A DNA stretch of 63,753 bases, counting the filler. It is 8 parts of 8 records of this genome, joined end to end, with 100 filler letters (N's around TTAATTAATTAA, not from the genome) between each part and the next. Parts side by side here need not be neighbours in the genome. Positions count along the whole stretch, not along the records: positions 1 to 12,987 come from SRR31147125_29097; 7 more parts are not named here. One strand, given 5' to 3'. Every line of letters starts with the position of its first letter. The stretch's first letter is position 1. Both the position numbers and the translations under genes were made by a program. The notes under the pieces were generated by a model, which saw nothing but the letters and a program-made list of their open reading frames with translations, was not told the origin of the DNA and searched no databases. Below are positions 1 through 16,981 of the stretch, piece after piece.

Positions 1-34
1 GACAGAATCGAACTGCCGACACGAGGATTTTCAG
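1..34 (-). tRNA. 3' half of tRNA-Phe(GAA), partial; displaced att-site copy of the integration target
   Basis: Reverse complement reads CTGAAAATCCTCGTGTCGGCAGTTCGATTCTGTC: GAA anticodon loop, 3' anticodon stem, variable loop and T-arm with GTTCGA. Similarity stops at the 5' edge of the anticodon loop (TACT instead of the expected GAGGA). The acceptor end lies beyond the contig edge. Confidence 0.85.
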
Positions 35-74
35 AGTAGCAATCCTCTGTATTTCTAAATAATAACAATAGCTT

Positions 75-99
75 AAAAAAGTGCGCGAAAAATTGCGCT
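75..99 (+). repeat. Left arm-type repeat AAAAAAGTGCGCGAA followed by a second TGCGC copy
   Basis: The 15-mer at 75-89 is identical to 12963-12977; tandem TGCGC units occur at both ends. Confidence 0.7.
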
Positions 100-147
100 A
101 AACAATTCTGCCCCCTATCTCTACTATATTTCCACATAGCAGCCAAC

Positions 148-585
148 CTATTTGCTGCCGTTTTTGCTCTTTATCTGCCTGCCATATTGAGCGTGTTGTT
201 TGATTAAATCATCAAACTCACCAGTCTGCACAGCTTCCTTCACTTTCAGTAAAGTAGCAGCTACCTGCTCTTCATTTTCCAGCTCAATTGCGTTCTTATC
301 TTTAGCGAACTGAATTGGCTTGCTGCCATAACGGATGGTTAGATTGATTTTGCCATCAGCCGTTGCGCTCCACCAACGCTTTACACGTTTTGGCACTTCA
401 ACTTTCTGCTCATTGCCATCAGCGTCTTTCACACGCTTGATTTTGGTTGGCTGATAATCAGAATTAGCAGCAAGCGCAAGCTGTTCATCAATTTTTACAA
501 TGAGCTTGCGCCTGCGTGTTGCTTCCGCTGATGAATTGTTTAATGGTTGGTAAGAAACAAATTTAAGCGAGTTAAGTACTGACAT
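148..585 (-). CDS. Conserved hypothetical protein, DUF6641-like (island-associated)
   Basis: ATG at 585 with AAGGAGG SD. Motifs RRRKLIxKIDEQL, KRVKRWW and IRYGSKPIxF-KxAIE recalled from DUF6641 proteins. Confidence 0.6.
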   Translation of the reverse strand: MSVLNSLKFVSYQPLNNSSAEATRRRKLIVKIDEQLALAANSDYQPTKIKRVKDADGNEQKVEVPKRVKRWWSATADGKINLTIRYGSKPIQFAKDKNAIELENEEQVAATLLKVKEAVQTGEFDDLIKQHAQYGRQIKSKNGSK

Positions 586-755
586 TGTGACCTCCTTTGT
601 GTGTTTAAAGCATTGTATTTTCATACGCTTGAAGAGGTCGACCGAAATCTAATAGCTTACGTTTAGTTGCTGAAGGATTTGACTCTGCATCGAAGAAGAG
701 TTTTAATAATTTCGGCAGACATGCCAATAACTTTATTTAGAAAATAGGGGGGAAC

Positions 756-2732
756 ATGCGTCTCAAACAAATACACATTCCGTCATTTAAAAGCATCGTT
801 AATCAAACGATAGATGTAACGGAAAAATGCATTGGACTTGTTGGGTTAAACGAGTCAGGCAAAACAAATGCGCTTAGTGCTATTAGGATGCTTTCTGAAG
901 ACTATGATTCTAGCTCTAAAGACCGCTCTAAAATTGATAGCAATCTTCCTCATGTTGAATTTGTTTTTGATTTTAAAAATGACGAAGAATTAGAGCAAGG
1001 ATTCATAGAAAATCTGTATGAGGAAAGGACTGTTGCTGGCTGGGATGAGGTTGTTGATATTTCTACTTTGAAAATTTCAGAGTTTAAAATAATACAAGAG
1101 TTAGATTCGGATGAAACAATAAAAACAAGCTATTCTCACCTATTTTCTTTCCAACCAAAAAACTTAAATCAGTATGGCTACTTGAAAAAAGGATGTGGTG
1201 TTCCTGCTGGGGAAATTATTGAAATTAATGGCAAGAATTGGAAAATTAGTGAGGGAATGATAGTTGAGAAAAGTAGCGCTTCTGAAGTGACTAAAGAATA
1301 CCTTACTGACCTCACAAAGGAAATTGTTTTTCAAAAGCTCCATAATGATATTAGCAAAATTCTCCAAACTTATGACTATATACCGTCAATAGTTTACTGG
1401 GAGCATAGCAAAGAGTATTTGCTTCCTTCAGAAATTTCATACAGTACCTTGTTGGCCGAAAATAAACCAAAGAAAGTATCTCGGCCTCTCTTTAATATCT
1501 TTTTGATTTCAGAAGGACTCAATATGAAAAATGAAAAAGATCTTATTGAGAGAGTGACTTTATGGCAGCAAGATTCAAGTCAAAGGAAAAAGGATTCAAG
1601 TAAAATAAATGAATCAATAAATTCCTACATGAAAAATGTTTGGAAGGACTACGATCAAGATATTGAGTTGACGCTTGAGTCAAGTGGAATAACTATACAT
1701 ATACTAGACCCAAACAGTCCCGACAAAAATTATTATGAAATGTCAGAGAGAAGTCAGGGGTTTAAAACATTTGCTTCATTTCTTTTGACAATTGCAGCAG
1801 AAAGTCATGTTGGAGAGTTAGATAACTTCATATTAGTTCTCGATGAGCCTGAAACTCATCTACACCCTAGTGGTGTTAGGTTTATGATGAAAGAGCTTCT
1901 TAAGTTATGCGAAAAAAACAATAACGTTTTTTATGCTACTCATTCTGTATTTATGATCGATAGGGCAAACCTAAATCGGCATTTAATAATTGAAAAACAG
2001 CTTGAGAAGACAATTGTAAAAAGTATAGATAGACAAAGCCTAATAAATGAAAATGTTATATATGAAGCCCTTGGTACAAATATAGATGAATTTTCGATGA
2101 AGCTAAAGAATGTTATTTTTGAAGGAGTTCTCGATAGAAACCTTTTTTCTTTTTATTTGGAGCAATGCCTACCTAAAAAGGATAACCCTTTTGGTGACTA
2201 TGGTTTGCTCGATGGTTGCGGAACTGGTAAAATTGGAAAATACTTTAAGGGGAAGATTTTGCCTGAAGGATCTGTCTGGCGATTAATTTTAGACAATGAT
2301 AAACCAGCAAAGAGTTTAGAAAAAACTATGTTTAAAGACTTTGATGGTGAAATTGGAAAGTCTGTTTTTTTAAATAACTACTCTGAAGAAAAAGATTTCA
2401 TACTTGAAGACTTGTTTCCCGCTGAAATAATAAATGAATCTCTAGATGTAATAAGTAGAAAATACTTTTCAAAATTAGAAAAAATAACTTACGATGAAGG
2501 TAGGTCTGTAAACAATACTTTTTTCGACTATACGAAAGAGAATAGTATAGATTTTGATAGATCAAATTCTATCTTTTTAGAGTTTAAGGAGATTTCTGAG
2601 TCTAAAATCAATGAGATATTGAAAGAAGTAAAGAAAGTCAATACAATTGATAGTAGAAGTGCTTTATTTAAAGAACGTCTTCCCAAATACTCCAATTTTA
2701 TTGACGGCTATATAAAAGAGATTAAAGGATAA
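756..2732 (+). CDS. OLD-family ATP-dependent nuclease (ABC/AAA_15 ATPase + TOPRIM)
   Basis: Walker A GLNESGKT, signature SERSQGF, Walker B VLDEPETHLHP, H-loop ATHS; C-terminal TOPRIM FEGxxD and DND. Confidence 0.85.
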   Translation: MRLKQIHIPSFKSIVNQTIDVTEKCIGLVGLNESGKTNALSAIRMLSEDYDSSSKDRSKIDSNLPHVEFVFDFKNDEELEQGFIENLYEERTVAGWDEVVDISTLKISEFKIIQELDSDETIKTSYSHLFSFQPKNLNQYGYLKKGCGVPAGEIIEINGKNWKISEGMIVEKSSASEVTKEYLTDLTKEIVFQKLHNDISKILQTYDYIPSIVYWEHSKEYLLPSEISYSTLLAENKPKKVSRPLFNIFLISEGLNMKNEKDLIERVTLWQQDSSQRKKDSSKINESINSYMKNVWKDYDQDIELTLESSGITIHILDPNSPDKNYYEMSERSQGFKTFASFLLTIAAESHVGELDNFILVLDEPETHLHPSGVRFMMKELLKLCEKNNNVFYATHSVFMIDRANLNRHLIIEKQLEKTIVKSIDRQSLINENVIYEALGTNIDEFSMKLKNVIFEGVLDRNLFSFYLEQCLPKKDNPFGDYGLLDGCGTGKIGKYFKGKILPEGSVWRLILDNDKPAKSLEKTMFKDFDGEIGKSVFLNNYSEEKDFILEDLFPAEIINESLDVISRKYFSKLEKITYDEGRSVNNTFFDYTKENSIDFDRSNSIFLEFKEISESKINEILKEVKKVNTIDSRSALFKERLPKYSNFIDGYIKEIKG

Positions 2733-2739
2733 TAAATAA

Positions 2740-2771
2740 AGAAAAGCTCCGGCCTTCACCGGAGCTTTTCT
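2740..2771. terminator. Bidirectional intrinsic terminator
   Basis: AGAAAAGCTCCGG-ccttca-CCGGAGCTTTTCT between convergent genes. Confidence 0.8.
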
Positions 2772-2832
2772 CTTCTGTGTGTTGGAGTCTGTGAATTGAG
2801 ACCATAGTCTTTGACTAGCTCTGACTAATTTT

Positions 2833-3057
2833 TTACTCGTTTCCACACTCCCATTCGCCAATGCAGTTTTGCAGACCTTTGCAAGCTACGGCCCCATCGT
2901 TATCGTCTATAAATTGCTGAATCTCATTTACCTGTTCTTCAGTAAGTTCTTCTATTTTACTGATGTCATAGTGACTTAGAATTTTTTCTGAAGCGTATTC
3001 GTACGCCTCTCCTTCAATTCTCTCTTCGAACTTATGCATTTTGGGGATTTTAAACAT
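2833..3057 (-). CDS. Small acidic hypothetical protein
   Basis: 74-aa ORF with AAGGAAG SD, directly downstream of 3078-3842. Confidence 0.6.
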   Translation of the reverse strand: MFKIPKMHKFEERIEGEAYEYASEKILSHYDISKIEELTEEQVNEIQQFIDDNDGAVACKGLQNCIGEWECGNE

Positions 3058-3077
3058 GTTCCGCTTCCTTTTTGTGG

Positions 3078-3842
3078 TTATGGGAAAATTCCTCCAGCAA
3101 CGTTTTGTATGGCCGATTTTGCGTCAGCCATGTAACGAGATACCTTTGTGGAAAGAACACGATTGATGTAGGAAAAGTCGCTTTCGCTTCCTTCAACTAC
3201 TGGTACTTCGAGTTTTCCAATCTTTGCCAGTGATTTGTTGGAAATTTTCTCCCCGTTTTTACTTGCAGCAATTTTAGCCTCATACATATCAAAAGCCACT
3301 TTGTATTTTGCGACTGTAATTGGTTTTGACAGGCTGTAAAGAGCGTTGCTCCTGTTTGGATTGCGCACAACTCGTCCTTTCTCGCCTGTTAGGTTTGCTT
3401 TTAATAACTTGTTCAATGCGTTGTCAACGTAAGTGCGCTTCATTGCTTTTGGTACTTGAATGACAAGCAATTCTTCATTTTGCATTGCTTCAAGTGCGCC
3501 TTGCTCGTCTTCAAGTAGTCTAACTTTGTATGGCTGAAAGGGCTCGGCAAACAGATACACGCCTCTATCAATGTCATCTATTTTTACTTGCCACCAGCGC
3601 TTGAAGGCAGCGTATTTGTCGCCCTCATATCTCACATCCCCAAAATCAGCATAGACCGCTGACAGCTTGCTATTCGTTTCAAAACGATTTGCTCCGTCCG
3701 CTTGCTCACAAAGCGCCACATAGTCCTCGTTCAGCGTCAACGCAAGCCACCACCAGTAGTAGGGCGACTTTTCTACGCCGGTAATTGAAATTTCTTTTTT
3801 TCTGCCAAATGTGGGGTGTTGTGAGATGAAAAATCTACGCAT
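3078..3842 (-). CDS. Conserved hypothetical protein, possible DNA-binding regulator
   Basis: Likely start MRRFFISQHP at 3842. Motifs SPYYWWW, YADFGDVR, FxxWW, LFAEP and C-terminal NVAxGxFP. Transcribed divergently from the 4018-6097 operon. Confidence 0.65.
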   Translation of the reverse strand: MRRFFISQHPTFGRKKEISITGVEKSPYYWWWLALTLNEDYVALCEQADGANRFETNSKLSAVYADFGDVRYEGDKYAAFKRWWQVKIDDIDRGVYLFAEPFQPYKVRLLEDEQGALEAMQNEELLVIQVPKAMKRTYVDNALNKLLKANLTGEKGRVVRNPNRSNALYSLSKPITVAKYKVAFDMYEAKIAASKNGEKISNKSLAKIGKLEVPVVEGSESDFSYINRVLSTKVSRYMADAKSAIQNVAGGIFP

Positions 3843-3967
3843 GTTATCACCGTATGAAAGGGTTGATAGGTGATAACAAGATAATCCATAAACTGTTATC
3901 AATCAACAACATTTTTAATCATAGGTCGGATACGAGAAAGAAGTAGAGTGTTAGTCTGCTGATAACA
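3842..3967. promoter_or_regulatory. Four TGTTATCA boxes in alternating orientation in a divergent promoter region
   Basis: TGTTATCA at 3842-3849 and 3894-3901; TGATAACA at 3871-3878 and 3960-3967. Confidence 0.6.
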
Positions 3968-4017
3968 AAACGGGCAATAAAGCCCACACTCAAACCCCTT
4001 ATAGAAAGGACATAAAA

Positions 4018-4425
4018 ATGAGTGCGAAATCAGACGCAAGCATGCCGACAGCAGACAACCACAACAACACGAATGAGGAGAAGAAGATGGGTAATGAAAT
4101 TCAGAGCTACATGGTGAAGAAAAATACTGTCGTCAAAGTAATTCGCTTTGATGATCCCAGCGATTTTGATAGCGGCCATTTCTATGTGGATGAATGGGTA
4201 ACAGAAGGAATGTTTGGTTTTAATCAAAGCTATCTTGTTGCCACTTTTGAATGCGTCTGTTGTGGAGAGGTCAGCTACGTCTTCGATCACAACTATTGCG
4301 GTTTTGTTGAAATTAACGGAAAAGACCTGATTTTAACCGAGCTTTCAATCGCCGAATTTTGTGCAGAGCATTATTCCGAAGACCACAATGCTATGCGGGG
4401 CAGAGCAGATGACAACGCTGCATAA
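4018..4425 (+). CDS. Hypothetical protein with a CxCCG motif
   Basis: 135-aa ORF with AAGGA SD; alternative start at 4087 behind GAGGAG. Confidence 0.5.
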   Translation: MSAKSDASMPTADNHNNTNEEKKMGNEIQSYMVKKNTVVKVIRFDDPSDFDSGHFYVDEWVTEGMFGFNQSYLVATFECVCCGEVSYVFDHNYCGFVEINGKDLILTELSIAEFCAEHYSEDHNAMRGRADDNAA

Positions 4426-4482
4426 GCAAACGATCAAATAGAAAAAATCCGTACGCATTAACCTTATTGAAAGGAAATTATT

Positions 4483-5346
4483 ATGACTAAGAAGAATGCT
4501 GAAGCAAACGAGCAAGTTGACGTAAACGAGCAGAATTTAGCCGCCAACGCACTTATGACGTTTAAAAATCGTTTTGAAACGATTTGCAAGCGCAGAGAGG
4601 AATGGGAGCAGACGCTGTTCAGCACAGCCAACAAGAGCCTGTATGACATGCTTGCAGAACTTTACAAGCTGTATGACGAAATGAGTGCTGATGATAAAGC
4701 AACTGAATTGAAGCGGACTTGGCTGGTTGACGAAGCTAAGCGACGCGAGATTGCATTTAAAAAGAACAAGCCGTCTTTAATTGAACTGTTGGTGAAGGTT
4801 GCTTTCACCAGCACCGTAAAAGACAGCAGACGAGTTAGTGCATACGTTCGCGTACTGAATATTATTGCTAACACTGAAGGCGTTTACGCAGCAGACATTC
4901 CAAAGTGGATTGAGGCGCAGGGCGGCATTGAAGAAATCCGTCAGCAAACAGCCAAAAACACTGCGACTCGCACTGAGCGTTTTGAAAAAGGTAAAGAAAT
5001 TGTGGCTGAAACTGAAACATTGGCATCTGTCAGCATTGATGCAGCCAGCCCATACGTGTCAGGCAACGTCAACAAGCCTGTTGTTCTTGTCGGCATTATG
5101 AAAGCAGACGGCGTCATCGACATTAAGCACATATGCGTTGAAAACGAAGAAGGCAGCAAGATTTCCGGCAAAACTGCCATCAACACGGCGTTGGCAAATG
5201 TCTACAGCAAGCATAACGACAAGCAGAAGAAAGACGAGCCAAAACAAAAGGCTGAAGAGGTTGCTGACGAGAGCGTGGACAACAGACAAAAGGTTTTGGA
5301 GATGATTAAGCAGGTAAAGGCTGGCAACGTTAATTACGCCGCCTAA
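4483..5346 (+). CDS. Conserved hypothetical protein (helical N-terminus; RVSAYxRVL and WIxxxGGIEEIR motifs)
   Basis: 287-aa ORF with GAAAGGA SD, co-oriented with the AAA+ gene. Confidence 0.75.
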   Translation: MTKKNAEANEQVDVNEQNLAANALMTFKNRFETICKRREEWEQTLFSTANKSLYDMLAELYKLYDEMSADDKATELKRTWLVDEAKRREIAFKKNKPSLIELLVKVAFTSTVKDSRRVSAYVRVLNIIANTEGVYAADIPKWIEAQGGIEEIRQQTAKNTATRTERFEKGKEIVAETETLASVSIDAASPYVSGNVNKPVVLVGIMKADGVIDIKHICVENEEGSKISGKTAINTALANVYSKHNDKQKKDEPKQKAEEVADESVDNRQKVLEMIKQVKAGNVNYAA

Positions 5347-5349
5347 CAC

Positions 5350-5379
5350 AATGACCCCGCCTAAAGCGGCGGGGTCATT
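5350..5379 (+). promoter_or_regulatory. GC-rich intercistronic hairpin without U-tract
   Basis: AATGACCCCGC-8nt-GCGGGGTCATT, a perfect 11-bp stem. Confidence 0.55.
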
Positions 5380-5428
5380 CCCTAACATCCAAATAAATCA
5401 ATTAACGAAAAATTTTAAGGAGATATGT

Positions 5429-6097
5429 ATGAATTACATTACTGAGCCAAAATCGACTGCTGACATGGTATTTGTTGACAAAAGCATTAAAAATCAACTG
5501 CTCGACATTCTTTGCAAGGACTATCCGTTCCCAATAAAAAACGGAAAAAACTCCCTGCTTTTGTATGGTGTGCCTGGCACTGGCAAGTCAACTTATGCAA
5601 AGATTTTTCTGAATGATTTTGAACTGACTTTTGGTGGTATTAATCCACCTATACATACAGTTGACTGCCAAAAAACACAAAATATAACGAGCATTCTTAG
5701 CACATGTAATGCCATTGCTGATAAGGCAGGACTTTTTACTGATTCAAGCTTTCATTATTTTGTTTTCGATGAAGTCGATAACTTGACAGCAGACGGACAG
5801 AGAGCGCTGAAGTCATTTTTGAACAGGCCAAATATCGTATGTGTGTTAACGACTAACCATTTGCAAAAAATTGATGAAGGCTTGATGAGCAGATGTGTGC
5901 AGCTAAATTTTAATGCGGCAAAAGAAGCTGATTGCATTGAGCGTTTTAAGGATGTGCTAGCTGCTAATAAATTGCCAATGCTGCCTGATGTCGCATTGGA
6001 AGAGATTGCTAGATCCAATAATGGTGATTGGCGAGCGATGATGCCAACGCTGATTTGGGCAGCAAACGAATATAAGAAGATGAGCTTTGCTGCATAG
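5429..6097 (+). CDS. Clamp-loader-clade AAA+ ATPase (RFC small subunit / T4 gp44-like), lacking the C-terminal collar
   Basis: ATG 5429 after AAGGAG. Walker A GVPGTGKS, Walker B FDEVD, sensor-1 TTN, SRC arginine finger, GDWR sensor-2. Only 222 aa. Confidence 0.8.
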   Translation: MNYITEPKSTADMVFVDKSIKNQLLDILCKDYPFPIKNGKNSLLLYGVPGTGKSTYAKIFLNDFELTFGGINPPIHTVDCQKTQNITSILSTCNAIADKAGLFTDSSFHYFVFDEVDNLTADGQRALKSFLNRPNIVCVLTTNHLQKIDEGLMSRCVQLNFNAAKEADCIERFKDVLAANKLPMLPDVALEEIARSNNGDWRAMMPTLIWAANEYKKMSFAA

Positions 6098-6124
6098 TCT
6101 CTTATCCTCACTATTTAATGTATT

Positions 6125-6154
6125 AAAGCCCCTTTCTTTTAAGGGGCTTTTTTT
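6125..6154 (+). terminator. Intrinsic terminator
   Basis: AAAGCCCCTT-loop-AAGGGGCTTT followed by a T-tract. Confidence 0.8.
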
Positions 6155-6192
6155 GTATGATTGGCAAAAATTTATGAGAAGGGGGCAATTTT

Positions 6193-6591
6193 ATGGCAAA
6201 AAATTACACGATGTATGAAAAAGAGAGTTGGGCAGACGAGCATTTTCCGCCTGTTGACGAAGCTGCTGATGATGTTGAGCTTGAGCAGAAACTACGTACT
6301 GTCTGCATGAAAGGGGCACGCTACATTGACCAACTGGCGGTTAGTACGAACAGGGCTTTGCACAGCATTCATCCGCCTAATCGTTATTTGCGGTATTTTA
6401 CTAATAGGGGCGATTTAGGAAGTGTTGGCGGTGAAAAGTTCGAAATGATTGCCAGCAGCGGCGGCGTCGAATACACCAACGAATATCAATTTGCGACTTT
6501 GCTGAAAGATCAAGTTGATGCAGAGGTTGTGAAGAAGTCGATTGAGCTTGTGCTTCAGTTTACGAAAGACCCTGCAATAAAAAGTATTTGA
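6193..6591 (+). CDS. Hypothetical protein
   Basis: 132-aa ORF with GAAGGGGG SD; terminator-like hairpin at ~6654-6683. Confidence 0.6.
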   Translation: MAKNYTMYEKESWADEHFPPVDEAADDVELEQKLRTVCMKGARYIDQLAVSTNRALHSIHPPNRYLRYFTNRGDLGSVGGEKFEMIASSGGVEYTNEYQFATLLKDQVDAEVVKKSIELVLQFTKDPAIKSI

Positions 6592-6759
6592 ATGGCGTGT
6601 AGCATAGTCCGTTGTTGAAATCGGCTATAGCATGTCAGTTCTTTGTGAAAAATGGGTCTAGCGAATCGTTAGGCCCCTTTTTTGTTGTGGCTGCTTCTGA
6701 AACCGTTTTTGCATAAATCAAATAAAAAACCATCTTTTTCAGCCATTTCTTTGCAGTCG

Positions 6760-6777
6760 GCATAAATAACTTTATGC
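6760..6777 (+). promoter_or_regulatory. T4-late-type ATAAATA box embedded in a hairpin that occludes the ATG
   Basis: GCATAAA-taac-TTTATGC stem; ATAAATA at 6762-6768, ATG at 6774. Confidence 0.55.
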
Positions 6778-7133
6778 ACAGACGAAATAAAGAAAACAAT
6801 TTACATTGGTACGATGAAAAACGATTAGAGCAAAGGGACAAGCAGCACGAGAAAATGACAGAAGAGTGGCTAAAAGAGAACGGTCTGAAAGCAAAAACAT
6901 TTCAGTCCTCGCCGCTGGAGCAGGTTCAAGCCGCCAGCGTAGCCCATCACTTGCTGACTGACTTTCCACATTTGCTTAACGAGACACAAGCAGAGGCACT
7001 GAACGAATATTCAGAAGCATTCAATAACAAGCGGCTACGTGAGAAAATTACACAGACGCAAGCGTATCGCATTCTGAATATCAGTAAAAAAGTGAATCGT
7101 AAACTGTTCAAGCAATACAGACAACAGGTATAA
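6774..7133 (+). CDS. Basic helical hypothetical protein, probably translated leaderless
   Basis: 119-aa ORF with no SD; ATG lies 5 nt after ATAAATA. Confidence 0.7.
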   Translation: MHRRNKENNLHWYDEKRLEQRDKQHEKMTEEWLKENGLKAKTFQSSPLEQVQAASVAHHLLTDFPHLLNETQAEALNEYSEAFNNKRLREKITQTQAYRILNISKKVNRKLFKQYRQQV

Positions 7134-7139
7134 ACAGGC

Positions 7140-7525
7140 ATAAAAGCAGATAAGCCACTGCATTAACAAAGGGCAAAAACGCGGGGTGAAATATGACGGC
7201 TAATGCCCCCGCACCCGTCAGCAGATTGCTGCGAAGGTCGCTGACATACGGGTGGGTGCCGCAGAGCGACTACAGTTTATGTGGTTCGGAAGTTTGAATA
7301 CGACCGTCTTCCGTTAAATGGCTCTTTTCGCAGTCGTGTTTGTGGTTCTCTTTTTACAATCAAAACACGATGACGACGGCAGTTCTGTTTTTTTTAATGG
7401 AAGCAGGACATAGCCGTCGTTTTGGATTCAGCATTCCCAATCAATCTCGTATCGCTTCGCTGCTAAAGAAAAAAGATAAGCGATGAGCGCAAGCGAAGAG
7501 CAGGCGAACGCAGTTTCGCCTTTCA
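7140..7525 (+). ncRNA. Highly structured non-coding region (ncRNA or single-stranded DNA origin)
   Basis: At least seven stems in ~380 nt with no ORF, including G-U-supported pairing on the + strand (7382-7390 with 7401-7409) and a potential pseudoknot (7181-7220). Confidence 0.55.
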
Positions 7526-7549
7526 CAATACCAGCAAGGAGAAGTGTTT

Positions 7550-7879
7550 ATGCCTAAGTACAAAATCACAATGCTCAAAAGATTTACGGTTGTTGAAAAG
7601 CACTGGGATGAATTCGATACGACAGATCAGAGTAAGTGGGATGAGCTACGTAAAAAAGCATCTGACTGTATTGGTAAGGCAGATGTTGAGAGTGGTTTTT
7701 CGGCAGAAGCACCAGATGATATCGACAAGTGGTATGAACTGTATTACCTGACGATGGACGAAGTTAGTGAAAATAAAGAAGAGGATTGGGATAAGGATGC
7801 TCGATTCGGGCCTGATCGAGTTTTCAAAATTGAGGATAGCAATTCCAATGTTGTGATGGAGGAAGAAGACTATTATTGA
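7550..7879 (+). CDS. Acidic hypothetical protein
   Basis: ATG 7550 after AAGGAG; D/E-rich. Confidence 0.6.
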   Translation: MPKYKITMLKRFTVVEKHWDEFDTTDQSKWDELRKKASDCIGKADVESGFSAEAPDDIDKWYELYYLTMDEVSENKEEDWDKDARFGPDRVFKIEDSNSNVVMEEEDYY

Positions 7880-8214
7880 TAATAGGTCAAAAATCACCAG
7901 CCTAAAACGATAAGTACTTCACCTAAAAAAACCGCATGTCATCTTAAAAGGCTGTAAAAGGTCTTTTGCCTCTGTTTTGCCCTACAACACACGATCGCTA
8001 AATAATGAAGAGTCGAGTCGCTGGCTACAACATCAGCCAGCGATAGACTATTTGTTCTCTTTATGGGATTTGCTGAGAGACCAAAGAAAATTACAAAAAT
8101 AATATCTGTTGTGTAAATTCAGTAGCTTAAGCGCGGATGTTTTCAGGTAGGAATCATTCACTAAAGAAAATATTATTACATATATAGATTATTTGGTTGA
8201 AAGGAGAAAAAACA

Positions 8215-8781
8215 ATGGCAAAAGCAAAAGCACTAACACAAGCAGAAATTGATCAGGTGTTACGTTATGTCGCAAATACCCGTTACGCCACTCGCAATCG
8301 CATGTTGATATTGATTAGCATATGGAGCGGGATGCGCGCCGGAGAAATTGCTGCAATTAAAATCAGCCATGTAATGAATGATGATGGAAGCATTAAGCAA
8401 GAAATTCGTTTAACAGCACAGCAGACAAAGGGTCACTACGCAAGAGTGGTCTTTTTGAATGAGAAATTGCGTGTTGAGTTGGCGGCATATTTGTCAGAAC
8501 GCAATACACAAAACAGGTCATTGCCGCTGTTTGACACAGAGAAGTCGCGTGGCTTTTCTGCTAACACGCTGACGCAGTGGTATTACTGGACGTACAAGAA
8601 TGCAGGCATCAGCGGTGCAAGTAGCCACAGTGGGCGCAAGACTTTCATAACCTCGCTGGCCCAAAAAGGAATTGGCGTACGAGTGCTAGCGAGTTTGGCA
8701 GGTCATCGCTCAATTGCAGTAACCCAAACCTACATTGATGTGAATGATGAAATGAAACGGCAAGCAGTTGAACTTGTTTGA
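8215..8781 (+). CDS. Small catalytic-domain-only tyrosine recombinase
   Basis: GMRAGE (catalytic R), TKG (K), HSGRK (HxxR), LAGH and TxxY. 188 aa with no N-terminal binding domains. SD AAAGGAG. Confidence 0.9.
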   Translation: MAKAKALTQAEIDQVLRYVANTRYATRNRMLILISIWSGMRAGEIAAIKISHVMNDDGSIKQEIRLTAQQTKGHYARVVFLNEKLRVELAAYLSERNTQNRSLPLFDTEKSRGFSANTLTQWYYWTYKNAGISGASSHSGRKTFITSLAQKGIGVRVLASLAGHRSIAVTQTYIDVNDEMKRQAVELV

Positions 8782-8788
8782 TTAACTA

Positions 8789-8822
8789 CTAAATACGCAT
8801 GGAGGTATTTTCCATGCGTATT
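8789..8822 (+). promoter_or_regulatory. T4-late-type CTAAATA box overlapping the 5' arm of a hairpin that sequesters the RBS and ATG
   Basis: CTAAATA at 8789-8795. Perfect 12-bp stem AATACGCATGGA (8792-8803) / TCCATGCGTATT (8811-8822) covering part of the GGAGG SD and the ATG at 8814. Confidence 0.6.
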
Positions 8823-8969
8823 GAAGAAGTCGTATCTGACGCTGAACAGAGAAACGTCGACCAAAAAAAGAAGGCAGCAAAGCAGGCAAAACTGACAGCC
8901 CAAAAAGCCGCCGCCAACCTCAAAATCCGCAAAGCCCAGCAGAAACTACAAAAACTAAATAGCATTTAA
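8814..8969 (+). CDS. Unannotated 51-aa Lys/Ala/Gln-rich protein (MRIEEVVSDAEQRNVDQKKKAAKQAKLTAQKAAANLKIRKAQQKLQKLNSI)
   Basis: Translated by hand. GGAGG SD 8 nt before the ATG, TAA at 8967-8969; shorter than any ORF in the supplied track. Confidence 0.75.
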   Translation: MRIEEVVSDAEQRNVDQKKKAAKQAKLTAQKAAANLKIRKAQQKLQKLNSI

Positions 8970-9024
8970 GCGTAAATCTGGTTATAAATTATGATAGTTC
9001 TAATTGTTCTGCATTGGAGGGGAT

Positions 9025-9630
9025 ATGATTGGTAAATTCTTTCGTAAAACGCGCAAGGCAATGAATTATGAAGAGCTTCGCTCAATCTCAATCGCTGTAG
9101 CGAATAACTTTGGCAACGATAAGGGGTCTATCCTAAGCACTTTGGCAAGGACGGAAGGAGAAACTATTGAATTCATCGAATATATAGATTCAGACCTTTT
9201 AGAGGTGTCAAATCTATCTTCTGTTGATGAACAATTGTTTAGCTTTCGAAGCAAGACACTGGATATGATAGAAAGGTCTTATAATGTTAGGCCTTTAATA
9301 GATAAAAGCTTTTGTGACTATGACAGGAAGTTGCTAGTTGAACATTTTTATTCAGATAAAAGTTATGAAGATGCCATTCAGTCAGCAATAACCGAAGCCA
9401 TTTACTCTCAAGCTGGTTACACTTGTTACGGTATTCTTTGTGAAAAACTAGGCGATAAAGATACTGCTAAATGGTTTCAGTTATATAGTGATCTTTATAG
9501 TGAATACACTAATAAGGTGAACAGGGAGATAGTTTGCAAAGAAAAATCAGATGATTCTTTTTCTTCTGAGATTAGTGTTGTTAAGGGCCAAGTCGATTTG
9601 GCGAGAGCGAGCATTACTGGCTTTGGATAA
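9025..9630 (+). CDS. Hypothetical cargo protein
   Basis: ATG 9025 after GGAGG; low GC. Confidence 0.65.
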   Translation: MIGKFFRKTRKAMNYEELRSISIAVANNFGNDKGSILSTLARTEGETIEFIEYIDSDLLEVSNLSSVDEQLFSFRSKTLDMIERSYNVRPLIDKSFCDYDRKLLVEHFYSDKSYEDAIQSAITEAIYSQAGYTCYGILCEKLGDKDTAKWFQLYSDLYSEYTNKVNREIVCKEKSDDSFSSEISVVKGQVDLARASITGFG

Positions 9631-9699
9631 AGTATTAGAATTTAAAATTTATATATTCAGACGGCTTTTTTTGATCCAATTGCATAAAATATTAAGAAG

Positions 9700-10173
9700 T
9701 TAAAAGTTTTGGTGGTAGATGTCAAAGTTGACGATTTCTACACTGCTTCCTGTTTCGTTTATGTCTTCATATTCACCAATAACTGAATTTAGAGTGAATC
9801 TATACTTTTCAAAAATTAGGCGCAATTCAACGTCATTTTTGTGGAAATGATAAGACTTTATGAATTCCATTGTTTCGCTAAACTGATTTTTGTTGAGAAA
9901 TAAGCCGATATTCATAGCTATTTCGTTTTTGTCATTCTCTATGAAATAGATTCCCCCTAAGTAATTATCTATTGTGCAATTATCTACGTTTAAAATTGTG
10001 ATGTTAGAGCTTTTTTTAGAATCATTGTGTCTACAATAGCAATTAATATGGGAGTGAAAGTCATCATTAATAACATTGATATTGTGACTTAAGATTCCTT
10101 CGATAACAAAATTCAAACTATCTAATCGATATAATTCGTCGATCTCCTCTGTTTTCCACGTTTCATTCCTCAT
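9700..10173 (-). CDS. Hypothetical cargo protein
   Basis: 157-aa ORF, very AT-rich. Confidence 0.55.
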   Translation of the reverse strand: MRNETWKTEEIDELYRLDSLNFVIEGILSHNINVINDDFHSHINCYCRHNDSKKSSNITILNVDNCTIDNYLGGIYFIENDKNEIAMNIGLFLNKNQFSETMEFIKSYHFHKNDVELRLIFEKYRFTLNSVIGEYEDINETGSSVEIVNFDIYHQNF

Positions 10174-10203
10174 CTTTAGAGCCTTTTATTTAAGTTTTGT
10201 TGC

Positions 10204-10887
10204 TTAGTTTGTGTCTTTAGCTTCATTTATCGATTTTGTCATTATGCTTCTACCGTATTTGTGTGCATGATTTAGTTGTTCTGCTGATTCAACGGCATTG
10301 TTGAATTTAGAGTTGAACTCATTGACAAGGACGTCTGTTTTTAGAAAAACTTCATCGCCGTTAAAGGTTATATTTGAATGGTTTTCAATTACAAACATGT
10401 AAAAAATAGATAGGTCATTAAGGTACTTGTTTTCCATCTGTTCGAAGTATGCTTGACTTGTCCCTTCTAGTCTTCCTTTCTTTTCTGTAGCCTTTCCTGT
10501 TTTCATTCTATTTTCTTTTAGTAGGGAGTCTAGCTGGTCGTAATGACTTTTTTGAATGGTCCTATACTGATCAATATTTTTTAGAAATATTTCAGCAACT
10601 TCTTTGTCTTTCAACTGCTGAAGGCTTGATAGTTCATAGGTGCCAATTAGTGATGATTTTTCTGCAAAAGATTCGTTCAATTTATTAAGGCGAGACATGA
10701 ACTCAGACATTATTGCTTGAAATTCATTTTTAGGAGAATTTAAGTCAATTTGTCCTTTTTGGGTATCTATGCCTTCTAGCATCCATTTAACGTCTTCGTC
10801 TGTTACGGAAACCTCTTTTTGGGCGTAGATTGGCAAGGCAGTGATTGTGATAAGTGCTGCTAGAATTGCTGAAATGTAAAGTTTCAT
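10204..10887 (-). CDS. Secreted/periplasmic helical hypothetical protein
   Basis: Signal peptide MKLYISAILAALITITALPIYA; GGAGG SD. Confidence 0.7.
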   Translation of the reverse strand: MKLYISAILAALITITALPIYAQKEVSVTDEDVKWMLEGIDTQKGQIDLNSPKNEFQAIMSEFMSRLNKLNESFAEKSSLIGTYELSSLQQLKDKEVAEIFLKNIDQYRTIQKSHYDQLDSLLKENRMKTGKATEKKGRLEGTSQAYFEQMENKYLNDLSIFYMFVIENHSNITFNGDEVFLKTDVLVNEFNSKFNNAVESAEQLNHAHKYGRSIMTKSINEAKDTN

Positions 10888-10911
10888 GCCCCCTCCAGTT
10901 TGATTGTAGTG

Positions 10912-11394
10912 TTAATTTCTTGCCCTTCTGTCTTCTTGTAAGCCTCTTCTGTTTTCATCATCTTTTTCCATTTCAGAAATATATTTGTCGATGAGGCTTG
11001 AAAGTTCTCCGTTCGTTTTATGTATTTCAATAAGTTTTGTTTCTAGTTTTAGTTGTGAAAGATTGATAAAGTTTGTTTCGGAATTTGGAATGCTTTCTTT
11101 TATGTTTTGAATTGCATTCTGATCAATCGCTATGCTGGCTTTCCATTTTTCAGTCATGCTGGACTTTAGTACGCCTCTTGCTGCTGAAATGGCTATGCGC
11201 GATTTATCTGCAGATCTGATCAGCTCTTCTAGCTTTTGTGTGTTTCTGTGGGCTTTGTTTATTTCTTTGCGCAGTTCAAGTCGGAGGTCTAATGATTTGA
11301 GCTTGCTAGCTTTTCGATAACCGATTACGCCACTAAAGGCACCAATAATTCCAGTTGCCATACCAACGTAGCTAGTCCAGTGTGGGTCTGCCAT
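10912..11394 (-). CDS. Membrane-anchored coiled-coil hypothetical protein
   Basis: N-terminal hydrophobic helix (WTSYVGMATGIIGAFSGVIGY) followed by a heptad-rich region; GAGGG SD. Confidence 0.7.
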   Translation of the reverse strand: MADPHWTSYVGMATGIIGAFSGVIGYRKASKLKSLDLRLELRKEINKAHRNTQKLEELIRSADKSRIAISAARGVLKSSMTEKWKASIAIDQNAIQNIKESIPNSETNFINLSQLKLETKLIEIHKTNGELSSLIDKYISEMEKDDENRRGLQEDRRARN

Positions 11395-11480
11395 GTGCCC
11401 CTCGCTTTCGTTCTTATTGAATTACATCTTTTTCTCAAAAACAATTCAAGTTGTAAATTTGGAGATTGGATATTTCGTTT

Positions 11481-12917
11481 TTATTTCTTATTTATGAGCT
11501 GTTCTAATAGCTTTTGTATCTGCTCGGCTTGTTTGGCATTTTGCTCTACCAATTGCCGTATTGTTGAGCTGTTTTCCTCTTCAGCTTTTTGCTTGTCCTT
11601 TGTTGCCCGTCTTTCGTGTCCTGCAAATTTGTTAGGGTTGTCGCTGACTTTGAAGTGGCTGTAGTGCTGCTCAAGCATCTTTACGCTCGTACCCATTTGT
11701 ACGCTGAGATCGTCAAAACTAATGCCCTTGTAGCGCATACGTGATGCATAAGTGTGACGCAGTGAGTACAGCGTTCTTGCTTCGCCAAAGTCGTCCCTTA
11801 ATAATCCGTCTTCTCTGCCTTCAACTTTTATCCATTTCAGTACACGCTTAAAGGCTTTGGTTAGTTGCTCCTGTACAGCTAGCTCACCGTTTGGATAGCG
11901 GAAGATGTGTTCGTCGCATTCAAACAGTTTGTCCCAATCCAAATCCTTCAAATTGTCAAATCTGTTTTTTATGTTTTCGAGCGGCTTCCAGCAGCCGTAT
12001 TTGACGCCATCTTCGCGCACAAATGGCTCATAACCAATAACAACACGCCTCTTTGTTTTACTGTGCGGCAAAGAGAATTGAATGCTTTCCATGCCGTGTT
12101 GTTTAGTGATGCTCAAATTTTTCCACTTTAAGCTAAGTATTTCACTGCCAGGTCGCATGCCTGTATTGACGAGTATGCGCACAACATCAATAAGCAGTTC
12201 GCGTATCCAAAATGTTTTTTGGCCTATGTTGTCAATGCCGTTGCGACCTTTTTGGTGTAGCAGCTTTTCGCTGTGTTTAAGGTAGCGCCACATGTTTGCA
12301 TTGAGCTTCTTCATTTCCTTGTCGTTAAAGTATGGCCGTCTTTTGCCCTCAACGCCGTCATTAATTGTTTTAGGGATGAACTGAATAAAGTTCTTCTCTT
12401 TTGCTTTGCGGAACAAGTAATTGAGGGCTGAGTTGTGCGTGGCAATAGTGGATTGAGTTGGCGCATGGCCAATCATCTCTCTACGCTTGTCTGAATACAT
12501 GCGCAGGGCAGTAGTGTCGATATTGTGGCACATGTAACTGCCGAGTATGGGTTGGATATATTTGTCTATTATCTGCACATAGTTTTTGGGTGTCTGCTGA
12601 CCCGTTCTTTCAGCTTCGTCCAATAGCTCTTTTCTGTAGAGTTGGCAGATGCTTGAAAACCTACGTGTTACGTCTATTTTGCCTGTCTTCTGCGCATACT
12701 GTATTTCTCTGTAGCGTTCTTCTGCGGCAGCAGTGGCTTGCTCAAAGTCAGCACACTTGGTGCTATAAACAACCCATTCTCCGCTGTTTCTGCGAATACG
12801 GGCTTGCCAACGTTTGCTTCTATTGCGCTTGAATAGGACGACAGCGCCATTGCATATGGCGCGCTCATCTTTCGGAATGGTATTGAGGGGTTGGGCGGTT
12901 TGCTGTTTATCTGACAT
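11481..12917 (-). CDS. int: Tyrosine integrase of the island (arm-binding N-terminal domain, core and catalytic domains)
   Basis: N-terminal KRxRSxxWQARI, NTGMRPG, SKT, YSLRHTY, QMGTSVKMLEQHY; coiled-coil C-terminal tail. Confidence 0.9.
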   Translation of the reverse strand: MSDKQQTAQPLNTIPKDERAICNGAVVLFKRNRSKRWQARIRRNSGEWVVYSTKCADFEQATAAAEERYREIQYAQKTGKIDVTRRFSSICQLYRKELLDEAERTGQQTPKNYVQIIDKYIQPILGSYMCHNIDTTALRMYSDKRREMIGHAPTQSTIATHNSALNYLFRKAKEKNFIQFIPKTINDGVEGKRRPYFNDKEMKKLNANMWRYLKHSEKLLHQKGRNGIDNIGQKTFWIRELLIDVVRILVNTGMRPGSEILSLKWKNLSITKQHGMESIQFSLPHSKTKRRVVIGYEPFVREDGVKYGCWKPLENIKNRFDNLKDLDWDKLFECDEHIFRYPNGELAVQEQLTKAFKRVLKWIKVEGREDGLLRDDFGEARTLYSLRHTYASRMRYKGISFDDLSVQMGTSVKMLEQHYSHFKVSDNPNKFAGHERRATKDKQKAEEENSSTIRQLVEQNAKQAEQIQKLLEQLINKK

Positions 12918-12962
12918 AGGGCACCTGTATAAAAACAGCTATTGATTGACCTATTGTATCAG

Positions 12963-12987
12963 AAAAAAGTGCGCGAAGAGTGCGCGA
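12963..12987 (+). repeat. Right arm-type repeat AAAAAAGTGCGCGAA-GAGTGCGCGA
   Basis: Direct repeat of 75-89 with tandem GTGCGCGA units. Confidence 0.7.
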
Positions 12988-13087
12988 NNNNNNNNNNNNN
13001 NNNNNNNNNNNNNNNNNNNNNNNNNNNNNNNTTAATTAATTAANNNNNNNNNNNNNNNNNNNNNNNNNNNNNNNNNNNNNNNNNNNN
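12988..13087. other. Artificial contig-join spacer (N-run with TTAATTAATTAA); six more identical spacers follow
   Basis: 100-nt N spacer with a six-frame stop linker, repeated at 24024, 29191, 35006, 43122, 53360 and 58635. Confidence 0.98.
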
Positions 13088-13147
13088 AATATTTGTCTAA
13101 CTTTTGGGGTCACTTCAGCAGCGCGTGTCCGGCTTTTATTGTTTAAT

Positions 13148-13429
13148 TTACCGGTGCTCCGTCTCGACGGATACAACATCGGCCTCGCTGTTTTGCTCCA
13201 CAAAGCGCCGGACGTTTTCCAGCACGCTGTCTGCCTGCGCTGTGGTTGCTGTGAGTGCGGCAATGCCCAGCACGATGGTCTGGTGAATATCCTGCTCGTC
13301 CGCTTCGATAACCGAGACGTTAAACGTATGGCGGATTTTTGCCGTCAGCCGCTTGACCTCGCTGCGCTTATCCTTGAGGGAATGCACCCAGGGCGCATGT
13401 AGTGTGATTTCCATGACTGCGGCTACCAT
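13148..13429 (-). CDS. DUF503 (YlxP-like) family protein
   Basis: SLKDKRSxVKxL-FNVSVxE-QDxHQ-LG pattern. Confidence 0.85.
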   Translation of the reverse strand: MVAAVMEITLHAPWVHSLKDKRSEVKRLTAKIRHTFNVSVIEADEQDIHQTIVLGIAALTATTAQADSVLENVRRFVEQNSEADVVSVETEHR

Positions 13430-13473
13430 TAGACCACGCCTTTCATATCCGGTTTTGCTCTGCCGGATGTGCC

Positions 13474-13833
13474 TTACCGTCTTTTAAAATTCGGCACGAC
13501 AAACCGGCCCAGATATTTTTTATTGCAAACGAAAATCCAAACGGCCGCCCCGACGAAAATAGGAATAATTATGACGGCGGCAACAGACGTGCTGCTTGTT
13601 CCCTGCAGGCGCGGCAGGATCATCGCCAAAACAACAACCGTCAGGCCGATCAGCACGTACGACGGAGAGATGAGTCTCTGATATTTTTTCCGCTTACTGC
13701 CGTCCATCTCCTGAACAATATTTGCATAGATAACAAACCGGCTGGCCGATCCGAAAAAGTTCCCGACGCCCACGGCGATAATGCACAACCCAAACACAGC
13801 CAGTGCGATCTGGTCCGTTTGCATAGTATTCAC
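13474..13833 (-). CDS. Small three-helix membrane protein
   Basis: Three hydrophobic segments; GAGGG SD. Confidence 0.6.
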   Translation of the reverse strand: MNTMQTDQIALAVFGLCIIAVGVGNFFGSASRFVIYANIVQEMDGSKRKKYQRLISPSYVLIGLTVVVLAMILPRLQGTSSTSVAAVIIIPIFVGAAVWIFVCNKKYLGRFVVPNFKRR

Positions 13834-15404: not shown

Positions 15405-15426
15405 ACGCAAGGCGGTCTTGCACAGT

Positions 15427-15455
15427 AAAAACGCACGGCTTATGCCGTGCGTTTT
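15427..15455 (+). terminator. Intrinsic terminator
   Basis: AAAACGCACGGC-ttat-GCCGTGCGTTTT. Confidence 0.8.
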
Positions 15456-16969: not shown

Positions 16970-16981
16970 AATAACGAACGG

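Follow-up and report, generated by a model that had tools for sequence, protein, structure and literature searches.

The window analysed here, a stretch of 63,753 nucleotides (nt), is composed of eight contigs of 5-13 kb each, with G+C contents of 32-51%, and is not one genome region. The contigs are joined by artificial linkers of 100 nt, each consisting of 44 N, TTAATTAATTAA and a further 44 N (positions 12988-13087, 24024-24123, 29191-29290, 35006-35105, 43122-43221, 53360-53459 and 58635-58734); since the contigs are unrelated and the linkers artificial, neighbourhood across a linker carries no meaning. Our subject is the first contig, positions 1-12987 (metagenomic, 39.5% G+C), which is nearly the whole of a ~13-kb island lying in the 3' half of a tRNA-Phe gene, where it is integrated via a large tyrosine integrase. 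The family to which the island belongs is new and lies outside the known satellite gene sets; one class of its genes is marked by a TAAATA box that closely matches the late promoters of T4-family phages. Among public sequencing runs, the island is present in one DNA run, a low-depth metagenome, and in no RNA run.

The 16 open reading frames (ORFs) of at least 74 amino acids (aa) were compared with Pfam, PHROGs and NCBIfam, and all 16 together with a 51-aa ORF were compared with PADLOC. P274 and P287 are the labels of a 254-aa and a 287-aa protein, respectively. Labels such as L001 or L083 denote related loci, L001 being a Desulfuromonadales metagenome-assembled genome and L002 Desulfuromusa kysingii. 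The borders and core genes of the island are the following.

1-34, minus strand: 3' fragment of a tRNA-Phe(GAA), from the anticodon loop onward, 34/34 identical to L001 9836-9869; distal att repeat, truncated by the start of the stretch
75-89, plus strand: left end repeat AAAAAAGTGCGCGAA, an exact 15-mer and candidate integrase arm site
148-585, minus strand: DUF6641 protein, 145 aa from the ATG at 585, a family core gene (Pfam PF20346, E 2.3e-21; phrog_31551, E 1.7e-13)
3078-3842, minus strand: P274, 254 aa, RovC-like putative transcription regulator, a core gene divergent from the P287 operon
4483-5346, plus strand: P287, 287-aa core protein with an ssrA-like C-terminus (...NYAA; C-terminal codons 5335-5346)
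5429-6097, plus strand: collar-less AAA+ ATPase of the RFC/clamp-loader clade, 222 aa, the family hallmark (phrog_168, E 1.4e-24; RFC large subunit, E 1.2e-15)
8215-8781, plus strand: short tyrosine recombinase, catalytic domain only, a core gene (Pfam PF00589, E 4.5e-24, profile positions 2-171 of 172)
8814-8969, plus strand: 51-aa basic protein (f30 family), N-terminus MRIEEV, a core gene with homologues in 15 loci
11481-12917, minus strand: large tyrosine integrase, 478 aa, inward-facing (Pfam PF00589, E 9.4e-7; phrog_1, E 3.9e-27)
12963-12977, plus strand: right end repeat AAAAAAGTGCGCGAA, an exact 15-mer (feature to 12987), after which the contig ends

An earlier, sequence-only reading of this DNA had described a tRNA-Phe-integrated element with an integrase, a second recombinase and matching end repeats. 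The two enzymes are indeed both members of PF00589 and the end repeats are exact copies. The tRNA-Phe site is borne out by the 34-nt fragment and by homology with L001, although ARAGORN found no tRNA gene within the stretch and the right border, where the contig ends at 12987 and an N linker follows, is not a biological boundary. In L001 a tRNA-Phe gene (9805-9880) and an integrase 87% identical to that of the island are 120 nt apart (the integrase of L002 being 89% identical), and the counterpart of the island's last bases is followed by ~62 nt containing a terminator-like hairpin and then by the intact tRNA. By homology, an intact tRNA would be expected ~62 nt past the contig end. With the far-end repeat at 1-34, and the tRNA side supplied by L001, the element is by definition a tRNA-integrating tyrosine-integrase island. 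The motif GTGCGCG recurs at 12980, just past the right end repeat, and the GTGCGCGAA doublet is retained beside the integrase in L001. Elsewhere in the family a tRNA gene was reached in five of the 34 related loci scanned (Phe, Met, Leu, Met and Lys), and L141 is a complete relative in which 51-nt repeats of the 3' part of a tRNA-Met, 15.2 kb apart, enclose the same gene order.

L001 also holds an island of its own, of ~8.9 kb (9862-18751), in the same tRNA-Phe gene and with a 19-nt repeat at 18733. It carries a related integrase, a short recombinase 48% identical to ours and a small basic ORF with box and hairpin, and is without P274, P287 and the ATPase, which indicates that the module of integrase, recombinase and basic ORF is exchangeable.

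Scanning metagenomes with an ATPase profile gave 80 loci. Searched against these with tblastn, the island's ATPase was found in 80, P287 in 64, the short recombinase in 35 (at 42-63% identity), P274 in 31, the integrase in 25 and the DUF6641 gene in 18; 132-aa and 119-aa ORFs matched one locus each and the remaining ORFs, including an OLD-like ATPase gene at 756-2732, matched none. ORF clustering yielded the recurrent order DUF6641 (minus), small basic ORF, (f22), short recombinase (plus), P274 (minus), P287 (plus), ATPase (plus), (GNAT), cargo, integrase (minus), with the recombinase displaced downstream in the island and in a marine subgroup, L090-L098. The shared core comprises the RFC-like ATPase, P287, the RovC-like P274, the short recombinase, the DUF6641 protein, the small basic protein and the integrase, seven genes which keep 25-60% identity across dozens of loci, while the cargo is variable. 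The conserved synteny that the sequence-only reading proposed to look for in homologous islands is present as this core order, shared across the 80 metagenome loci, and the loci make up a large family of tRNA-integrating islands, 6-15 kb in size, without any annotation that we could find. Literature searches on DUF6641, DUF6626, clamp-loader satellites and TATAAATA satellites gave no account of such a family, the VEIME/tycheposon supplementary tables, which could list related profiles, lying outside their coverage. The 13-kb island had no megablast match among phages and plasmids. In IMG/VR the ATPase profile retrieved true phage clamp loaders only (25-33% identity) and the single ATPase protein retrieved nothing. 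The ATPase was not found in the two Desulfuromonadales genomes that have a related integrase; named organisms with close homologues of it include Ruegeria conchae and 'Deltaproteobacteria bacterium IMCC39524'.

None of the 16 ORFs matched a capsid, terminase, portal, primase, helicase, Rep, relaxase or AlpA protein in Pfam, PHROGs or NCBIfam, as had been supposed from the letters of the contig, and the further statement that the gene content does not agree with P4, PICI, cf-PICI or PLE likewise held at the level of hidden Markov models. The markers of these families we take to be the primase-helicase alpha with Psu/Delta/Sid for P4, primase/rep with terS or capsid-remodelling genes for PICI, and RepA and others for PLE; the P4-like, PICI, cf-PICI and PLE markers were absent across the same ORFs and collections, where neither a primase, helicase or Rep nor a terS, capsid or AlpA family was matched. 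For virulent phages only a few satellites are, to our knowledge, described (PLE and PICMI). PICMI provides a precedent for satellites of virulent T4-like vibriophages and, like the island, is small and integrase-borne, has no capsid or terminase and carries defence cargo and large non-coding stretches. In the accessible text of its source, however, its defining genes are int, alpA and a DUF3987/DUF5906 primase and its integration site is fis, whereas the island has int only, is situated at tRNA-Phe and has unrelated core genes (bioRxiv 10.1101/2023.07.18.549517). Tycheposons and PICI-like islands share the inward tyrosine integrase, partial tRNA repeats, a small conserved module with cargo and a size of 10-20 kb, but the hallmarks given in the main text for tycheposons are primases, helicases and polymerases, with terS or a major capsid protein in some, whereas those of the present family are the RFC-like ATPase, P287, the RovC-like regulator and the short recombinase; the two are set apart here without the supplementary profile tables, so that minor overlap is possible (bioRxiv 10.1101/2020.12.28.424599).

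The profile of the ATPase family matches the RFC small subunit (E 8e-20), T4 gp44 (8e-13) and DnaX (4e-10), over the ATPase and lid domains only. Residues G47, G50, G52, K53, D114, E115, T141, T142, N143, R155 and C156 are invariant in 25 sequences; they fall in Walker A, in DE and TTN and, as R and C, in the SRC motif, which places the protein in the clamp-loader clade of AAA+ ATPases. It shares with the RFC small subunit, T4 gp44 and DnaX the Walker A and Walker B motifs, sensor 1 and the SRC arginine-finger motif. Unlike these clamp loaders, it is only 222 aa long (homologues 214-264 aa; 259 of 532 candidates accepted), has no pentamer-assembling collar, is paired with the unrelated P287 and has no clamp gene nearby. 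As for the collar domain, none was detected, matches stopping at about residue 210-220 of the 320-340-aa RFC chains; longer fused forms were not searched. Among isolated phages the nearest relatives are the gp44 proteins of KVP40-like and ViI-like phages, at 25-30% identity. The protein had been described as a gp44/RFC-like ATPase, and its place in the clamp-loader clade is sound, although it is nearer to the RFC small subunit than to gp44.

P287 is encoded directly upstream of the ATPase in every one of the 64 loci, out of 80, that contain it. It belongs to no Pfam family and its Atlas neighbours are all annotated 'hypothetical'; its structural model (pLDDT 80.7) had no meaningful match in the PDB (best Foldseek E 0.77; best VIA Z 7.1, to helical segments). 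The C-terminus ends in AA in 41 of 57 orthologues (L084-L162), mostly as LAA, IAA or VAA, compared with 82 of 874 background ORFs of at least 100 aa. The ssrA-like appearance of this tail suggests that the stability of P287 may be under ClpXP control.

For P274, the scoring of 8000 candidates from public metagenomes gave a family of no fewer than 1099 clusters (90% identity; E<=0.001), nearly all of them unnamed. Its model (pLDDT 77) has RovC (6xz5_A) as best match and the sole one with Z of 5 or more (Z 5.4, root mean square deviation (RMSD) 5.8, 138 aligned residues; next Z 3.6), while no Foldseek match and no significant PDB sequence match was obtained. PF20109 matches weakly in three of 18 members of the family (best E 0.0036), the island's own P274 not being one of them, and the Atlas neighbours of P274 carry PF20109 (Trans_reg_dom) and PF10074 (the RovC DNA-binding domain), the two domains that characterise RovC/FseA regulators. 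The resemblance to RovC and FseA activators lies in the near full-length alignment and these weak PF20109 matches; a Z of only 5.4, an RMSD of 5.8 and the lack of a significant sequence match set P274 apart from RovC. With moderate confidence we regard it as a putative RovC/FseA-like regulator.

In the small basic protein the N-terminal pattern M-[RK]-[IFLV]-x-E-[IVF] is kept in 15 homologues. This is probably the protein to which the sequence-only reading attributed a capsid-targeting-like N-terminus. The T4 prohead protease cleaves after L/I-x-E (PMC9026906), and L/I-x-E is present in about half of the small basic protein N-termini, a match that extends over five residues only.

Two TAAATA boxes of the island each come with a hairpin.

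6761-6768, plus strand: box 1, CATAAATA (TAAATA at 6763-6768); the ATG at 6774 is 5 nt past the box, at the predicted +1, an arrangement that recurs in nine other loci
6760-6777, plus strand: hairpin 1, GCATAAA/TTTATGC, free energy (dG) -13.6, z -4.4, 0 of 200 shuffles as stable
6774-7133, plus strand: 119-aa ORF behind box 1, 26% identical to an L160 ORF which carries GCTAAATA-N5-ATG too
8788-8795, plus strand: box 2, ACTAAATA (TAAATA at 8790-8795); Shine-Dalgarno (SD) sequence 8801-8805, ATG 8814, predicted +1 8801
8792-8822, plus strand: hairpin 2, a 13-bp stem (8792-8804 with 8810-8822), dG -20.5, z -5.7, 0 of 200 shuffles as stable

TAAATA as such is not enriched in the island, where 13 copies compare with ~20 in mononucleotide shuffles, and box-variant 8-mers show no overall enrichment across the related loci. 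The signal resides in the distance from TAAATA to an ATG that opens an ORF of at least 40 aa, which was counted over 31 spacings in 67 non-redundant loci (452 kb). At 5 nt there were ten sites, and at 17 to 20 nt six, five, three and six, the background elsewhere being 1.27 per spacing; the Poisson tails are 9e-7 for the former (3e-5 corrected for 31 spacings) and 4e-7 for the latter. Hexamers of the same composition had no such peaks in the related loci. A stretch of 526,890 nt of D. kysingii chromosome (376 copies of TAAATA) contains a single site at 5 nt and shows no peak, and neither do 1.06 Mb of phage loci show one, these being early-gene regions usable as a negative control only. The box is island-specific and not a host motif.

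Upstream of the small basic ORF, CATAAATA or GCTAAATA is found 5 nt before the ATG in the distant loci L149, L116, L114 and L123 (ATPase identity 33-36%), and a box ~19 nt before it in the island, L001 and L148. The genes that follow a box at 5 nt are not all homologous, and comprise the basic ORF, the 119-aa ORF (with a relative of 129 aa in L160) and ORFs of 181 and 110 aa. Loss of the TAAATA sites in homologues had been set beforehand as a result that would refute the sequence-only reading; the hexamer proved to be kept at fixed distance from the ATG, before the same accessory genes, in distant relatives. Expressed per gene family, [AC]TAAATA occurs upstream of f30 in 5/6 cases, DUF6626 in 4/5, the HUH-like f47 in 4/4, f56 in 2/4 and the short recombinase in 13/51, as against 0/61 for the ATPase, 4/50 for P287 and 2/50 for P274, the background being 0.039 per 210 nt. 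The box marks one gene class, to which the small basic protein, DUF6626 and the 119-aa ORF belong, among others. Taking position relative to the start from the fixed 5-nt ATG spacing, [A/C]TAAATA is present in 21 of 26 dereplicated sites, -12 being A in 11 and C in 10. Positions -27 to -14 are T-rich, and apart from this T-richness no conserved column, and hence no -35 element, was seen between -41 and -14 in these 26 sites.

Two further observations concern the boxes. The start codon forms part of TATG in eight of the ten box-N5-ATG sites (this island, L149, L114, L116, L123, L140, L100 and L141); TATG, which is partly imposed because it pairs with the box's CATA, may be a further start-site determinant. 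In the marine subgroup, a 74-nt gap between the DUF6626 gene and a 160-aa HUH-like gene (weak REP_ORF2-G2P match, E 0.019) contains two inverted GCTAAATA boxes ~37 nt apart, within a larger palindrome; such two-box gaps lie at L098:5843-5918, L091:6330-6402, L090:4360-4420 and L083:2575-2640.

In each hairpin the 5' arm contains TAAATA (in hairpin 2, the edge of the box), and the ATG belongs to the 3' arm. The stem of hairpin 2 covers the box edge, part of the GGAGG SD sequence and the ATG at 8814 of the 51-aa ORF, a gene absent from the list of the sequence-only reading, and this hairpin is kept in L001, where the pairing is preserved through a G:C to A:T change.

The island could be an ordinary defence or cargo island, serving solely as carrier of the OLD-like nuclease gene and other cargo, in which TAAATA-N5-ATG would be an AU-rich start context or a weak promoter inherited from a host, and the hairpins would be incidental or terminators. 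Such a reading is in keeping with the OLD/AriA/GajA-like ATPase described below, with the absence of overall TAAATA enrichment in the island and the loci, and with start-codon occlusion that does not exceed control (figures below); in addition, several box sites stand before homologous genes, so that shared descent inflates the counts. We nevertheless consider it improbable, because genes that are not homologous (f30, 119/129-aa, 181-aa and 110-aa ORFs) share the exact 5-nt spacing, the hexamer is kept while its flanks have diverged, the spacing peak is missing from host and phage control DNA, and a passive carrier would have no need of a core of seven genes kept at 25-60% identity in dozens of loci.

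From its position we infer that the box is a promoter, with transcripts starting 6 nt downstream. A box at -12 to -6 places +1 on the A of the ATG at the 5-nt sites, giving a leaderless mRNA, and leaves a leader of 12-15 nt with an SD sequence at the 17-20-nt sites. The likeness to T4-family late promoters is close in sequence, in geometry and in the missing -35 element. The T4 late promoter is TATAAATA at -13 to -6, with T(-13) poorly conserved in T4 relatives, and that of Aeh1 is CTAAATA from -12 (PMC1524935); T4 late promoters are without a -35 element, gp55 recognising the box and the loaded sliding clamp activating (PMC2988020). Shared with the island family are ATAAATA, or the CTAAATA of Aeh1, at -12 to -6, the lack of a -35 element and a location directly before genes (PMC1524935, PMC2988020). 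The two island hairpins also fit T4 gating: in T4 genes e, soc, 49 and I-TevI the start region is locked in a helix that has the late promoter in its 5' strand, only late transcripts being translated, and, as in these genes and Aeh1 mobE, each island box is part of the 5' strand of a hairpin in which the SD sequence or AUG is hidden (PMC3014915). Differences from T4 are that the boxes sit in a bacterial chromosomal island, that the full octamer is rare, that about one third of island-family sites imply leaderless mRNAs, which the accessible parts of these sources do not describe for T4, and that no gp55, gp33 or gp45 homologue was identified in the island.

A scheme modelled on T4 genes e, soc, 49 and I-TevI would run as follows. 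Transcripts reading through from upstream would fold the hairpin and stay untranslated, while transcripts initiated at the box, being without the 5' arm, would be translated. The box would be read by a gp55-type late sigma factor from an infecting T4-like (or ViI- or rV5-like) phage, and the action of that sigma factor at the boxes would make the gene class, and with it the island's response, dependent on infection, leading either to packaging, as in a satellite, or to defence. Host sigma-70 needs a T at -7, which TAAATA does not offer. Since sigma-70 should disfavour TAAATA, the host chromosome is without the layout and the motif is constant across host classes, a phage-supplied gp55-type sigma is to our mind the best single candidate for the box reader, and a T4-late-type trigger is plausible, if somewhat short of probable.

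Ranked close behind the phage sigma as reader of the box, and possible though rather unlikely, is the island's own circuit. In such a self-contained switch the boxes would be read by host RNA polymerase with P274, or by an island sigma-like protein, in response to a cellular signal; the P287 tail would be a proteolytic timer, no T4-like phage would be involved and transfer would take another route. Members of the RovC family, FseA among them, act in integrative elements as master activators of excision. P274 resembles RovC in its structural score (Z 5.4 against 3.6 for the next match), in the PF20109 matches of three of 18 members and in its Atlas neighbours, and a role of the FseA type in excision activation would suit the scheme, as would the AA endings of 41 of 57 P287 orthologues. 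A box that is island-specific, rather than a host motif, is what a private regulator predicts, and no phage link emerged from the phage records, IMG/VR or the other contigs. It is harder to reconcile with such a switch that upstream of the boxes there is T-richness and no conserved activator site, that TAAATA lacks the T at -7 required by host sigma-70, that an identical motif occurs in islands of very different hosts, and that the box coincides with T4-family late promoters in sequence, in position and in having no -35 element. Overall we judge the switch a somewhat unlikely account, less so than that of the ordinary island.

The phage-sigma proposal can be extended to the whole element, along the lines of the sequence-only reading. 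The islands would then be undescribed satellites, or infection-triggered islands, dependent on T4-like clamp-dependent late transcription; the accessory genes would have gp55-type late promoters, in part producing leaderless mRNAs; the ATPase and P287 would load or capture the helper clamp on island DNA, restricting the firing of these promoters to productive infection, and the basic protein, through its conserved N-terminus, would enter or act on the helper head. This complete scenario we think quite improbable, a little more so than the ordinary island; the link of the ATPase and P287 to clamp-dependent late transcription is attractive and speculative, and we put forward the T4-like helper, the satellite lifestyle and the clamp role as hypotheses. 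The sequence-only reading had relied on several independent T4-like signals. The box and its geometry stand, whereas hairpin gating across the family and a gp44-specific ATPase find no support, which leaves one strong signal accompanied by suggestive ones.

A number of results weigh against the phage-sigma proposal itself. Start-codon occlusion does not exceed control across the family, at 7/26 sites compared with 63/300 and 48/300, or, by a wider definition, at 7/17 compared with 244/600 (p 0.58), so that of the claim of two TAAATA boxes in start-occluding hairpins the reality of both hairpins holds (z -4.4 and -5.7) while gating as a family trait is unsupported. The ATPase is RFC-like in general and not specifically gp44-like. 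The full octamer TATAAATA has no copy in 1-12987, its five copies in the whole window all being on other contigs; position -13 is mixed, T occurring in only 4/26 sites; and A- and C-type boxes coexist in one island, the C type being reported in the T4 family for Aeh1 alone in the source available. The RovC-like regulator is encoded by the island itself and could drive the boxes. DUF6641 and P287 had no tblastn match in 50,697 phage records, and a freshwater P287 profile found no family member in IMG/VR, a search uninformative for elements without viral markers. No T4-like phage linked to the hosts was found, and no excised-circle joints were present in one public run whose fragmentary contigs at depth 1-4 make it uninformative. 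The other seven contigs come from unrelated bacteria of several kinds, none phage-like; their large ORFs encode a SprB-repeat protein, a sulfatase, an AMP-binding enzyme, an ammonium transporter and a Y-family polymerase. As to packaging, neither a packaging signal nor occurrence in viromes was found.

T4-like phages are among the most abundant viruses in freshwater and marine settings, and borrowing of a helper's promoter code is known from virophages and P4. If the phage-sigma proposal were true, very abundant islands of freshwater, marine and sediment Proteobacteria would have their expression wired to T4-like late transcription, and a helper promoter code combined with a clamp-loader-like ATPase would offer a direct way of learning how lytic infection is sensed and exploited by chromosomal elements. 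The cautious reading still leaves, besides defence cargo and the conserved ssrA-like tail of P287, a new core gene set made up of three proteins without Pfam families and a promoter class private to the islands whose leaderless geometry is strict, all of them experimentally tractable.

The remaining features of the island are given below.

756-2732, plus strand: AAA_15/OLD-like ATPase, 658 aa, candidate anti-phage cargo (Pfam AAA_15, E 2.1e-18)
2833-3057, minus strand: 74-aa ORF without family match
3665-3690, no strand: left copy of a 26-nt inverted repeat with palindromic core TCGTTTCAAAACGA, within the 5' part of P274
4018-4425, plus strand: 135-aa Cys-rich ORF without family match, in 0/80 related loci
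4566-4591, no strand: right copy of the 26-nt inverted repeat, within the 5' part of P287
6125-6155, plus strand: terminator-like hairpin and T-run after the ATPase gene (dG -15.7, z -3.1)
6193-6591, plus strand: 132-aa ORF, 73% identical to L083 only, without family match
7134-7543, plus strand: 410-nt non-coding tract (fold z -2.6, 1 of 100 shuffles as stable), no Rfam family
7544-7879, plus strand: 111-aa acidic ORF without family match
7885-7922, plus strand: 38-nt non-coding segment upstream of the short recombinase, 92% identical to L083:2167-2203 and 91% to L150:1633-1664
9004-11394, no strand: low-G+C (32-37%) cargo block of four ORFs (208, 157, 227 and 160 aa) without family match, in 0/80 related loci

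In PADLOC the OLD-like protein matches Old (E 1.8e-23), AriA (E 5.2e-22) and the GajA models (~1e-14). Its C-terminal 240 aa have no Pfam assignment, a Toprim domain goes undetected by Pfam, and a PDB OLD chain matches residues 353-427 only; the Toprim-like motif is only a reading of the sequence by eye. As in P2 Old and class 1 OLD nucleases, PARIS AriA and Gabija GajA, an AAA_15 ATPase is carried on a mobile element; unlike in PARIS and Gabija, the gene is single, without an AriB or GajB partner.

The sequence-only reading had also drawn attention to a long structured non-coding tract, and this is present at 7134-7543 but is only moderately structured; Rfam searched at E<=1 gave sub-threshold chance matches only. 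Within it, 7148-7215 aligns with L160:4282-4348 (blastn, nhmmer) as a 69-nt non-coding segment, with a GC-rich hairpin inside, that is 87% identical where the proteins of the two islands are 26-33% identical. The conserved segment could be a small RNA or a cis site.

The two 26-nt repeat copies are 92% complementary and are the sole two in the island. They bracket the divergent P274/P287 control region and both encode NRFET in frame. Analogous pairs with a palindromic core (TCGTTT..AAACGA or TCGTGTTAACACGA) lie at L140 3815-3828 and 4323-4336 and at L084 5273-5285 and 5716-5728. As a family feature the P274/P287 palindrome was rejected, the strict pattern having six matches in 5/67 loci, which is too few. 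The paired sites may be recombinase or regulator sites. Fim-type invertases are tyrosine recombinases of ~200 aa that act on short inverted repeats around a promoter segment; the short recombinase would fit in size, and the 26-nt repeat brackets the P274/P287 control region, but no inversion was seen in the shallow run. Against the 200-aa 'tyrosine-type DNA invertase' model NF007370 the short recombinase scores E 8e-14, below the model's cut-off.

Such sites, and the short non-coding segments shared by distant islands (7148-7215 and 7885-7922), could alternatively be an origin of transfer (oriT) or recombination sites of an integrative and mobilisable element moved by a co-resident conjugative element through a cryptic oriT, which would also agree with the lack of packaging genes. 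We hold this to be very doubtful, the least probable of the readings considered, as no relaxase, coupling or mobilisation protein was matched among the 16 ORFs in Pfam, PHROGs or NCBIfam, and as the clamp-loader-like ATPase and the box would be left unexplained; the estimate concerns the transfer route, not the box reader, and is partly independent of the other three readings.

PADLOC gave no match for the right-hand cargo or the small basic protein. The block at 9004-11394 is probably a recently acquired cargo module, since its G+C content is well under that of the rest of the island and its ORFs have neither a family match nor a counterpart in the 80 related loci. Within it, the 227-aa protein has a signal-peptide-like N-terminus and the 160-aa protein one predicted membrane helix.

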